Source: Octopus vulgaris (Eukaryota). From it: a stretch of 64,000 bases of DNA. Both the position numbers and the translations under genes were made by a program. This document shows, piece by piece, positions 1,452-12,572 of the stretch. Location: the NCBI GenBank assembly GCA_951406725.2, contig OX597827.1:59582001-59646000 (forward strand), written 5' to 3'. Position 1 is the first letter of the stretch; each line of letters starts with the position of its first letter. Under the pieces are notes generated by a model. It was given only the letters and a program-made list of their open reading frames with translations. It made no database searches and was not told the origin of the DNA.

Positions 1452-1482
<31 letters not shown>

Positions 1483-1485
1483 CTT

Positions 1486-1740
1486 AATATAAAATAGTGC
1501 ACCTTTAAAATTTTACCTTAGGTAAAAATTTTTATTTTTCATTTCCTTTGAAAATTGCTATTAAATGTGGTTTGGTCGTTTTGGCTGCTTCTAGCGTGTA
1601 AAAAAATTACCTGTTAAAGGGTAGTTTTCTCTTGTGTTTAAAGGTACACTATTTTATATTGAGAATATGTTGTCTATTGACTATTTATACTTGCTAGGCC
1701 ACTGGTGGTGATATTTCTAAGGAATATTCGTTACCCTATA
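1486..1740 (+). mobile_element. Family E fragment (Penelope pLTR-like) with inverted 5' segment
   Basis: 1510-1740 aligns with 8525-8757, the region just 3' of the HHR. 1486-1509 is the near reverse complement of 1637-1660. Confidence 0.7.
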
Positions 1741-1763
1741 TATGTATATATATATATATATAT

Positions 1764-4852: not shown

Positions 4853-5245
4853 ACTCTTTTACTTGTTTCAGTCATTTGACTGTGGCCATGCTGGAGCACC
4901 GCCTTTAATCGAGCAACTCGACCCCGGGACTTATTCTTTTGTAAGCCCAGTACTTATTTTATCGGTCTCTTTTGCCGAACCGCTAAGTAACGAGGACATA
5001 AACACACCAGCATCGGTTGTCAATCAATGCTAGGGGGACAAATACAGACACACAAACACACACACGCATATATATATATACATATATACGACGGGCTTCT
5101 TTCAGTTTCCGTCTACCAAATCCACTCACAAGGCTTTGGTCGGCCCGAGGCTATAGTAGAAGACACTTGCCCAAGGTGCCACGTAGTGGGACTGAACCCG
5201 GAACCATGTGGTTGGTAAACAAGCTACTTACCACACAGCCACTCC
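4849..5245 (-). mobile_element. SINE family A
   Basis: Near full-length reverse-complement copy. Confidence 0.9.
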
Positions 5246-5555: not shown

Positions 5556-6160
5556 CTCTATGGCAAAGACGATTATGAGCTTGAAGGACTATTACGTACT
5601 GTGAAAGCATTCAGTAATGACATTGGGATAGAATTTGGTCTTGATAAAAGTGCCAAGGCCACTTTCAAGAAAGGGAAACTGAAGACCTCACAAACAAGCT
5701 GATGTAGACCGGAAGCACACCCATCAGTGGCTGCGGAGCTCAGGGCTAAAGGCAGAGAGTGAAGGCTTTATCTTGGCTGTCCAAGATCAGCGCTTATTGA
5801 CCCGGAAATATCAGTCAATGTGATAAAAAATGGTGTAGTCCCAAAGTGCCTATACTGCAACGATGGGATAGAAACAGTGAACCACTTAATCTCTCGATGT
5901 AAGGTTTTAGCACCTGTAGAGTACAAGACATGACAGAGTTGGCCAATATCTACATTGGATAATGACTCGGCATTATAAAATCAAAACTGTTGACAAATGG
6001 TACAAGCACCACCCAGGGGCTGTAACTTAGGGAGATCTAACTATTCTTTGGGACTTTCCAATATGAACAGACCGGACCATCAAAGCAAACAAACCAGATA
6101 TTTTAGTGAAAGATCAAAAACAATAAAGTCTGTTTATTAATTGACATGAGCATACCCTGT
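5553..6160 (+). pseudogene. R4/Dong-like non-LTR retrotransposon relic (RT tail, CCHC knuckle, REL endonuclease)
   Basis: Hand translation gives KLYGKD...VKAFSNDIGIEFGLDKSAK (post-DD RT), WLRSSGLKAESEGFILAVQDQ, CLYC..ETVNHLISRC (CCHC), HDRVGQYLHW, ILWDFPI*TDRTIKANKPDIL and LLIDMSIP. Contains frameshifts, stops and an internal deletion. Confidence 0.9.
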
Positions 6161-6284
6161 GTCCAAAGGGTTTATTAATTGACATAAGAATACCTTACGT
6201 CCATAGGGTTTATTAATTGACATGAGCATACCCTGTGTCCATAGGGTTTATTAATTGACATGAGCATACCCTGTGTTCAATAGG
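6132..6284 (+). repeat. 38-bp minisatellite, 4 copies
   Basis: GTTTATTAATTGACATGAGCATACCCTGTGTCCATAGG units start at 6132, 6170, 6208 and 6246. Confidence 0.95.
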
Positions 6285-6289
6285 GTTCA

Positions 6290-6845
6290 ATAAAGAAAGT
6301 CCTAGTTAATTACTGGGGGTCAATGTAATTTACCTTCCCACCCCCTTAAAATTGCTGGCCTTACGTCAAAATTAGAAAGAATTACTATTATTATTATTGT
6401 TAACGAGGCGAAGATGGTGAGCTGGCAGGGACGTTAGCCCGCCGGGCGAAATGCTTAGCGGCATTTCGTCCGTCTTTACGTTTTGAGTTCAAATTCGGTC
6501 GATGTCAACTTTACCCTTCATCCCTTTTGGGGGTCAGTAAAATAAGTACCTGTTGAGCATTGCGGTCGATGTAATCGACTTACTCTCTCCCCCAAAATTG
6601 CTGGCCTTGTGCCAAAATTTGAAACCATTGCTATTGTTAACGAGGCGAGTGGTCGAATCGTTAGCACATCGGACAAAGAATATTTCGTTGTATTGCTTTC
6701 CGAGTTCAAATCTCGTCGATTTCAACTTCGTCTTTCACTCTTTCGAGGTCGATAAAATAAGTACAAGGCAAACACTGGTGTCGATGTAATCGGTTTGCCC
6801 CCACCCCTCAGAAATTGTTGGCCTTGTGCCAAATTTAGAAAGAAC
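6290..6845 (+). mobile_element. SINE family B, head-to-tail array (one partial and two near-full copies)
   Basis: Repeated GAGTTCAAAT...TCATCCCTTT..GGGTC..TAAAATAAGTAC..GTCGATGTAATCG..GGCCTTGTGCCAAA. The junction ATTGTTAACGAGGCGA occurs twice. Confidence 0.85.
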
Positions 6846-7228
6846 TATTATTACCGTTTTAACATAAAAGTCAATAGTCTTCGGTTCGTTTTGTTTACAC
6901 ACGTGTATTTTTTGTACTAATTTATCATTGTTAAATGAATTGCAACTAAATAATGAGTGTATTGAATCTGAATACCAAATACAACACAAATAAATAAATA
7001 CAGTTATATTCTATGTATTTTTTTTTTATTTTTTAGTAAACAAAATAAAAAAAAAGGAAAAACGTTTCCCACACATATTGAAAGAAAACTGAGATTAAAG
7101 CTTGTGACAGAGCTTTAAAAACCAGCGGAAAACGAGGGAGAAAGTCGACATTTTGAATACACGAAAAGAAAAATTCACATCCAAAGAATGAGAACGAAAT
7201 CGCCGTCATCGCTTTTGTTACTTTTAGC

Positions 7229-8339: not shown

Positions 8340-8757
8340 ATTTCTTTTAAAAATTGAATTGCGCTTGCGCGGTGAATTTTGAAAAATTATAACATATAAT
8401 GATGAGACACGTATTATTTGTCTCTAAATTATATGTTAATTGTTAAGGCACGGTTACTGATGAAGATTCGCCTAGCAAATTATATATTTTTCCTAAAATA
8501 ATCTGAAACCTAGGTATGACCGTAAAAAAATTACATGGTAAAAGTTTATATTTTTCATTCCCTTCGAAAATTGCTCTTAAAATGTGGTTTTGGTCGTTTT
8601 GACTGCTTCTTCTAGCGTGTAAAAATTACCTATTAAAGGTAGTTTTCTTTTGTGTTTAACTGTACACTATTTTATATTGAGAAATTATTGTCTATTGACA
8701 TTTTATACATGCTAGGCCACTGATGGTGAAATTTCTAAAAATATTCACCACCCTATA
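8340..8757 (+). mobile_element. Family E, HHR-bearing repeat (Penelope pLTR or retrozyme-like)
   Basis: Contains the HHR at 8450-8523. The 3' part is repeated at 1510-1740. The 5' boundary is uncertain. Confidence 0.7.
8450..8523 (+). ncRNA. Type I hammerhead ribozyme, canonical core, minimal palindromic stem III
   Basis: Stem I ACGGTTA/TGACCGT; CTGATGA 8457-8463; stem II AGATT/AATCT; GAAA 8505-8508; CCTAGG palindrome; GTA triplet, predicted cut after 8516. Confidence 0.88.
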
Positions 8758-8764
8758 TAATTTT

Positions 8765-8799
<35 letters not shown>

Positions 8800-8800
<1 letters not shown>

Positions 8801-9014
8801 CGGGTTGGTGCATAATTATTGCGGCTTTTTTCAACAAAAACAATAACTTTATTTAACAAAAACATCTTTAAATGACGGTCTGGCCGTCTGCCAAGCAAAT
8901 GGGAAGCAGTAATTGAAGTAGATGGTGAATATGCTCCAGAATAATCATTTAAAGATGTTTTTGTTACATGTTGTTATTCCATTTGTTGAATAAATTTTGT
9001 TGAAAAAAATTATG
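8800..9014 (+). mobile_element. Mariner internal-deletion derivative
   Basis: Left TIR TCGGGTTGGTGCATAATTATTGCGGCTTTTTTCAAC follows TA. 8885-8944 encodes RLPSKWEAVIEVDGEYAPE*, a mariner-type transposase C-terminus. Partial right TIR TTGTTGAAAAAAATTATG. Confidence 0.85.
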
Positions 9015-9078
9015 TGTATGTGTGTGTGTGTGTGAGTGTGTGTGTGTGTGTGCGTGTGTGTGTATATGTGTGTGTGTG

Positions 9079-9292
9079 GCCTTTGTGTCTGTGTTTGTCC
9101 TCCCACCACTGCTTGACAGCCGGTGTTGGTGTGTTTATTTCCCCGGAATTTAGCGGTTCGGCCAAAAGAGAGCGATAGAATAAGTACTAGGCTGCAAGGA
9201 AAATATGTACTGAGGACGATACATTTGACTGAAAATTCTTCAAGATGGTGCCCCAGCGTGGTCGCAGTCTAATGACTGAAACAAGTAAAAGA
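9079..9292 (+). mobile_element. SINE family A, 3' half
   Basis: TGTGTCTGTGTTTGTCC...TTAGCGGTTCGGC...ATGACTGAAACAAGTAAAAG. Confidence 0.8.
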
Positions 9293-9537
9293 ATTTACGA
9301 TAAAAGATACACACACGTACATTTCCGCTCACTTTTAAACACATTTCTTGTAAATGACGCAGGGCCCCAGTCTGTCTGTCTGACGGTCCCTCCTCTCCCA
9401 GTCATATGCATACATATATACGTACGTACCTACATATATATGCATACAAATATATAATATATACACATACACACACACACATATTCCGGTGCAAATAGTT
9501 TTTATAGATATATATATATATGAGTGTATATGTGTAT

Positions 9538-11574: not shown

Positions 11575-12125
11575 AAGTGTCAGAGCTAGCAGAATCACTG
11601 CCGTGCCGGACAATATGCTTAACAGCTTTTCTTCTGGCTTTACGTTCTGAGTTCAGAGTTATAAATCACTATAACATGTCTAACTTAGCATCATATATCT
11701 AACATAGATAAGTACCAGAAAAAAGCTGGTCATATGTGAAGGACGAACTGTCCGATACATGTATTGTACGAGTTAAACTTGTCATTCATCCCCTCGGATC
11801 GATAAAATAAGTACCAGTCAAGCACCGGGGTCGATGATATCGACTTTCTCTTTCCCTTAAAATGACTGGCCTTGAGCCAAAGATTTGTAACCGTTATTAC
11901 AATATATTATAATAGCGGGGAAATGGCAGAATATTTGGGAGGTCGGAAAAATGTTTTGTAGTCTCTCATCTTGCTCCTCACGTTCTGAGTCAAAATCTTG
12001 CCTTATTTCACTTTGGCTTCATTCCTCCAGGGGCGATAAAATAAAATACTAATTTAGTAGTAGGCCCGATGTTGTTGACTAACCCTATCTCATTCCTCTC
12101 AAAAACTGTTCGTCTTGTACCTTGT
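11575..12125 (+). mobile_element. Cluster of degenerate SINE family B copies
   Basis: Recurrent GAGCTAGCAGAATC, TACGTTCTGAG and TCGATAAAATAAGTACCAG..GGGGTCGAT motifs. Confidence 0.65.
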
Positions 12126-12164: not shown

Positions 12165-12572
12165 AGGAGTAGCTGTGTGGTAAGAAGCTTGCTTCCCAAC
12201 CATATGGTTCCGGTTTCAGCCCCATTGCGTGGCACTCTGGACAAATGTCTTCTATTATAGCCTCGGGCCGACCAAAGCCTTGTGAGCGGATCTGGTAGAC
12301 GGAAACTGAAAGAAGCCCGTCGTATATAGATATATGTATATATCTATGTGTGTGTGTGTGTGTGTCTTTGTGTCTGTGTTTGTTCCCACCCATCATCACT
12401 TGACAACCGGTGTTCGTGTGTTTACGTCCCCCGTATCTTTGCGGTTCGGCACAGAGATCGATAAAATAAGTACAAGGCTTTAAAAATAAGTACTGGTGTC
12501 GATTCATTCGACTAAAATTTCAAGACAGTGCTCCAGAATGACCGCAGTCGGATGATTGAAACAGGTAAAAGG
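12165..12572 (+). mobile_element. SINE family A
   Basis: Full-length match to the other family A copies. Confidence 0.9.

Follow-up and report, generated by a model that had tools for sequence, protein, structure and literature searches.

[quoted passage not shown] The PLE literature on which we draw describes insertions with partial tandems, inverted pieces and a bias toward (TA)n (Craig et al. 2021, PMC8557442), and a PLE with two internal start sites for its reverse transcriptase (RT) (Frangieh et al. 2024, PMC11167929). Here we set beside these systems a hammerhead from a 64,000-nucleotide stretch of the Octopus vulgaris genome, called the window throughout. It is quite probable, in our judgement, that this hammerhead lies in a 5'-truncated, decaying copy of a non-coding repeat of ~468 bp, that the repeat is likely a retrozyme-type parasite of PLEs, and that the copy is predicted to misfold and cut poorly. 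We would class the family among elements of the non-LTR retrozyme type. Its kind is known and the family is new: no description of it was found in literature on octopus hammerheads, cephalopod Penelope hammerheads and octopus non-autonomous Penelope repeats, and because Repbase, Dfam and subscription journals lay outside that scope it may already be catalogued.

The motif occupies 8450-8523 on the forward strand, as do the other ribozyme and repeat-family features given here for the window, and is a type I hammerhead with a predicted cut between 8516 and 8517. Its core elements CUGANGA, GAAA and UH are all present, as CUGAUGA at 8457-8463, GAAA at 8505-8508 and the UA at 8515-8516 that follows stem III (C-CUAG-G, 8509-8514). 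Stem I pairs 8450-8456 with 8517-8523 (7 pairs, one of them G-U), and stem II pairs 8464-8468 with 8500-8504 (5 bp, with 31 nt between the arms; 8464-8504 with its extension). An earlier sequence-only reading had claimed all core nucleotides (CUGAUGA, GAAA, GUA), a 7-bp stem I, a C-CUAG-G stem III with a palindromic tetraloop, and a CCTAG at 8471-8475, and each of these was found where it had been placed; its view that this is a true hammerhead, of the sort with a palindromic loop and a tendency to dimerise, was likewise borne out. Two of its descriptions hold in part. The pairs and spacing of stem II are as it gave them, but the supposed 31-nt loop is a damaged hairpin, and the motif is intact in its core but not in its peripheral pairs. 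The 8-bp hairpin that the family bears on stem II has decayed at 8473-8495, where pairs are lost at 8488 and 8492 and one nucleotide is inserted near 8483 (6 of 8 pairs remain), and the outer extension of stem I (8440-8445 with 8531-8536, spanning 8440-8536) keeps 4 of its 6 family pairs.

This hammerhead motif is real and not a product of chance: it is the only perfect-core match in the 64-kb window, and 300 dinucleotide shuffles yielded no hammerhead under a strict rule and five under a loose one. Rfam returned nothing at its gathering threshold in the 64-kb window, and its hammerhead models matched nothing within 8357-8766 even when E was allowed to reach 10, nor in seven loci with E up to 1; since intact siblings and PLE hammerheads also go without a match, the models evidently overlook such a shape. 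In hammerhead position numbering, pair 10.1-11.1 is A-U in the window motif, and across 62 family regions it is G-U in 46, A-U in 7 and G-C in 6. Of the 11 motifs listed, 7 retain U1.7 together with the A that precedes pair 11.4, the window copy and a sister family among them. In the window motif A8500 and U8523 are the candidate partners in a loop II-stem I contact, a type of contact described in hammerheads (PMC11875169).

Around the motif lies a 410-bp copy (8357-8766), or 0.87 unit, of a repeat that is scattered through the genome, codes for no protein and has a circularly permuted unit of ~468 bp; with unit positions counted from the predicted cut site, the copy runs from unit 310 through the cut to unit 250. 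From copies longer than one unit, 7 of the 13 loci examined gave a period of 464-475 bp, one of these from a weak alignment; a copy that carries a deletion gave 441. Unit GC content is 30-32%, and no ORF longer than 93 aa overlaps the window copy at 8357-8766. The family thus shows what marks a non-LTR retrozyme, namely a non-coding unit of a few hundred bases with GC below 50% and one type I hammerhead. Two genome searches gave 2283 and 3152 first-look candidates, which are not copy numbers, and 40 of each were scored; among these the closest other copy is 93% alike to that in the window, and the best 40 of the 3152 held no array of more than two units. A set of 77 loci, 66 of them distinct, served to map the ends; this sample is enriched for long copies. 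The window holds a second, hammerhead-less copy at 1482-1745 (forward from about 1519, ends approximate), whose start lies some 20 nt past the cut site; it is preceded by short inverted pieces and flanked on either side by TA repeats.

The ends of the copies follow a pattern. Main segments have their 3' ends at unit 159-171 in 40 of the 66 loci and at unit 238-256 in a further 10, and their 5' ends are scattered; when copies were chosen by an internal 28-mer, the two regions accounted for 29/59 and 14/59, and TA repeats stood behind 32/59. The window copy passes unbroken through the main end region (8675-8687) and uses the second (8755-8800), where it runs into (CA)n(TA)n. A search for a target-site duplication of at least 6 nt found none. 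Copies of at least one unit make up 30/66 in this sample enriched for long copies, and many loci carry an inverted piece that terminates at the same 3' end sites. Two tandem hammerheads in the same direction occur at three loci (L004, L066 and L076) and one at the window locus, and the 64 kb contain no second hammerhead with which it could form a tandem dimer. The family has every mark of a Penelope-like element that is non-autonomous: its 3' ends are fixed, its copies are truncated at the 5' side, and partial tandems, inverted pieces and a (TA)n target all occur. Its ends, inverted pieces and (TA)n correspond to the PLE marks set out in PMC8557442 and PMC11167929.

Variation across families bears on whether the fold mattered. 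The sister family (352 candidates) has a 456-bp unit that is collinear with ours along its length (E=0.0009, with high composition bias), and its different stem sequences still pair, with a palindromic loop and a stem II hairpin of its own and neither CCUAG nor CUAGG. This sister is older; its copies (L081:420-960 on the minus strand, L129-L148) show a permuted unit and a UCGA loop, and several terminate at the site equivalent to unit 250-256. Because the stems differ in sequence yet pair, the fold was likely selected in the source elements. Support for the three stems comes from this cross-family variation, whereas covariation within the family is weak: double-change cells number up to 12 (8 of 500 shuffles as high), mostly at one stem II pair, which goes from G-C to A-U in 8 family copies, and the other four of five measures show no clear excess (27-344 of 500 shuffles as high).

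After insertion the copies appear to have drifted. Of 26 copies chosen by sequence outside the hammerhead, 11 have an intact core, and changes in the core (22/286) run at the background rate (117/1408 outside it), which argues against selection on the fold once inserted. Repeats within one insertion have 51 of 431 variant columns in common (control 3.4%), so few that most differences must have arisen after insertion. Divergence from the column majority has a median of 6.1% and is 5.7% in the window copy; the closest of 1474 pairs are 96% alike, and no young copies were found among the top-scored matches. With background-rate decay of the core and neither young copies nor long arrays found, the family looks inactive.

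These observations suggest a mechanism that begins with a source transcript of at least two units, in which neighbouring hammerheads would pair through an 8-nt palindrome into a double hammerhead that cuts out ~468-nt monomers. By analogy with the retrozymes of PMC7229834, the monomers would likely be circularised, and a hammerhead left without a partner would cut poorly. A Penelope-type RT/endonuclease would then nick (TA)n DNA and start cDNA downstream of the cut, at a distance of about 160-170 or 240-256 nt, copying a variable length, often across the cut site. In the source elements the stem II hairpin would hold CCUAG off stem III, and in the window copy two substitutions after insertion would have taken this protection away.

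The cut site is crossed by 66 of 97 copies. Most templates had accordingly either escaped cutting at this point or been ligated again, a count that fits circles and uncut linear tandems alike. A serious, if somewhat improbable, alternative is that linear, uncut transcripts of partial-tandem sources were copied, that no circle was involved and cleavage was dispensable, and that the family is a non-autonomous PLE derived from a pLTR. The PLE from anole studied in PMC11167929 is described as using mostly uncut RNA as template, and its core mutants still insert; in our copies 5' ends do not build up at the cut (4/67 within 3 nt, p=0.34), and the longest observed is two units. The seamless passage of other copies through each of the two preferred 3' ends and through the cut site speaks against linear templates, as do the stems that still pair across families and a stem III of the canonical retrozyme kind, where the two autonomous PLEs examined have minimal hammerheads. 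These features at most make the linear route somewhat less likely.

A pile-up of 5' ends just past the cut, considered as a possible trace of cleavage, did not hold up: 22 of 59 copies picked by the 28-mer end within 39 nt downstream, but a control set gives 11/44 in that bin against 17/79, 18/62 and 11/33 in neighbouring bins, and the combined rates are 0.0095 versus 0.0075 and 0.0063 per nt. An excess of 5' ends at unit 8-17 (15/85, nominal p=0.001) concerns a bin chosen afterwards that lies within an A-run. Contigs of three RNA runs picked by guess contained scattered pieces, none spanning the stretch, and so speak neither for nor against expression; no circular RNA was seen.

How far the copies could still fold was judged from 62 aligned hammerhead regions. 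The core is intact in 43, of which 24 also have full stems I-III; among those 24, 17 also keep a perfect 8-bp hairpin and 9 the 6-bp outer extension of stem I as well, so that 17/62 sampled copies are better preserved than the one in the window. Stem III is predicted to be unstable in every monomer (probability at most 0.04). The stretch at 8508-8515 is self-complementary and could serve as stem III between two molecules joined in a double hammerhead (-11.4 kcal/mol), and predicted homodimers of the 41 core-intact copies contain an intermolecular stem III in 27 cases and a full double hammerhead in 10, in agreement with the dimer model as presented in PMC4209133. Intact copies are accordingly predicted to cut as dimers via the 8-nt palindrome. 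These are equilibrium predictions that leave aside Mg2+, tertiary contacts and co-transcriptional folding, from a model harsh enough to give just those 10 of 41 full structures. Natural unit-length circles compared with 30 shuffles each gave z of -3.6, -4.0 and +0.1; two of the three fold better than their shuffles and one no better.

The window copy behaves differently in these predictions. Over four sequence contexts CCUAG pairs with stem III at a probability of 0.46-0.99 (0.70 in a transcript of 8430-8560) and stem II has a probability of 0.00; the predicted homodimer keeps this misfold and contains neither an intermolecular stem III nor a double hammerhead. The sequence-only reading had suggested such an alternative pairing and a possible switch. 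The pairing is indeed predicted to form, but it hardly looks like a conserved switch, since it exceeds 0.5 in only 4 of the 37 copies that keep both motifs, the window copy included, and is at most 0.06 in 32. An evolved conformational switch is very improbable in our estimate, even though CCUAG is found in most copies and the pairing dominates the predicted fold here, for the sister family has neither sequence and the enabling changes are rare: the A at 8488 is absent in at most 3/62 copies and the G at 8492 in 5/62. In sibling copies the UAG of CCUAG is part of the stem II hairpin, which thereby hides CCUAG; with the hairpin intact, CCUAG hardly pairs with stem III. On these fold predictions, the proposed switch is most likely decay of the window copy.

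Whether the window copy itself could be an active ribozyme, cutting any transcript through it as a monomer or in trans, turns on the same predictions. Its whole core, stems I-III and candidate U-A contact are kept, which counts against our claim of poor cutting, and coral and mussel ribozymes with a 2-bp stem III are described as cutting as single motifs (PMC7229834). We nevertheless think activity unlikely, given the loss of stem II in all four contexts, the lack of a partner hammerhead nearby and of any recognised gene in the window, and the failure of 8 of 9 predicted frog retrozyme dimers to cut in the account of Li, Clavereau and Pollet (2026). The motif had been put forward as the best candidate for an active ribozyme; this stands within the window, but by predicted energy cost of reaching the active fold it ranks 29th of the 41 core-intact copies, and relative to its siblings it is predicted to be a poor candidate.

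A more far-reaching reading, possible but doubtful, is that both families, ours and its sister, are the fossils of circular RNAs that a Penelope reverse transcriptase copied from two fixed starts within them, that an evolved hairpin clamp on stem II frees the palindromic stem III so that cutting occurs as a dimer only, and that the best-preserved copies still cut in this way. If this is true, a hammerhead variant extended in stem II has been overlooked by Rfam, and genomic copies map RT starts on a retrozyme circle.

The genome carries intact RT and GIY-YIG elements with a 781-aa ORF. A young two-ORF Penelope-like element (L111-L116, e.g. L114:244-5460) encodes 479 aa and 781 aa (RT and GIY-YIG) in copies 97-99% alike, with pLTRs of ~500 bp and a hammerhead-like motif that is apparently the U3-A8 variant of the core and whose stem I is poorly defined. 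A second PLE family (L117, L119, L127) carries, about 130 nt before its 3' end, a minimal hammerhead whose loop is GUAC, and a third (L273-L280, L040:1800-2175) has two 3' ends about 40 nt apart. The third is of similar age to the 468-bp repeat (median about 90% between 8 copies), and a piece of it is joined to a unit at L040 alone. With its ORF ending about 200 bp upstream of the unit, the L040 element was tried as the partner and rejected, as none of the 8 other copies of that PLE continues into the unit. Neither likeness at the 3' end (180-437 of 500 shuffles scored as high) nor profile and pairwise tests for homology to an autonomous pLTR gave anything above shuffles against the three PLE families. 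Of 123 later loci, 3 have PLE pieces nearby, and these seem to have inserted separately. A pattern search for short-stem hammerheads gave three matches, none of which passed the stem test. Further palindromic-loop hammerheads lie beside PLE pieces at L085, L086, L123 and L126, most of them with long inserts in stem II (about 100 nt at the longest), and two in inverted orientation occur at L086.

The window is rich in microsatellites and comes from a 2.8-Gb genome. A scan of its 137 ORFs against Pfam for a host gene gave four weak matches, none above the cut-off. It also contains a tandem repeat of 38 bp at 6132-6287 (4.1 copies, 88% matches) and other short interspersed repeats that recur in many sampled loci (5037-5245, 6318-6853, 9013-9323, 11583-11881 and 12166-12478). 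As one decayed copy among probably thousands, the locus carries little weight, and better-preserved copies elsewhere in the genome suit activity work instead. The family is of wider interest as a retrozyme-type unit with the full PLE insertion signature, which bears on the idea that PLEs mobilise animal retrozymes, and its natural pairs of intact and misfolding hammerheads could be used to probe the role of the hairpin and the dimer requirement.

The comparison with known systems can be drawn on two sides. With non-LTR retrozymes, as characterised in PMC7229834 and bioRxiv 10.64898/2026.07.22.740005, the family shares a canonical type I hammerhead with a short stem III and a palindromic tetraloop, a unit that is AT-rich, lacks coding sequence and measures a few hundred bases, head-to-tail order and the presence of PLEs in the same genome; at 468 bp its unit is slightly over the 150-450 bp range given in PMC7229834. 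It departs from typical retrozymes in occurring mostly as dispersed truncated copies or copies of 1-1.4 units, with none longer than two units seen, in the internal loop and 8-bp hairpin on its stem II, and in its seeming inactivity. From PLEs it differs in lacking an ORF, in a hammerhead that is canonical rather than minimal, in 3' end clusters about 85 nt apart as against the 30-40 nt tail described for PLEs, and in showing no sequence likeness to the three PLE families compared. What it shares with PLE insertions and pLTRs, as depicted in PMC8557442, PMC11167929 and PMC4209133, is a fixed set of 3' ends downstream of the hammerhead, with a longer end as an option, together with truncation at the 5' side, partial tandems, inverted pieces at the 5' side and (TA)n targets. 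By analogy, then, the repeat would work like a non-LTR retrozyme and insert like a Penelope-like element.
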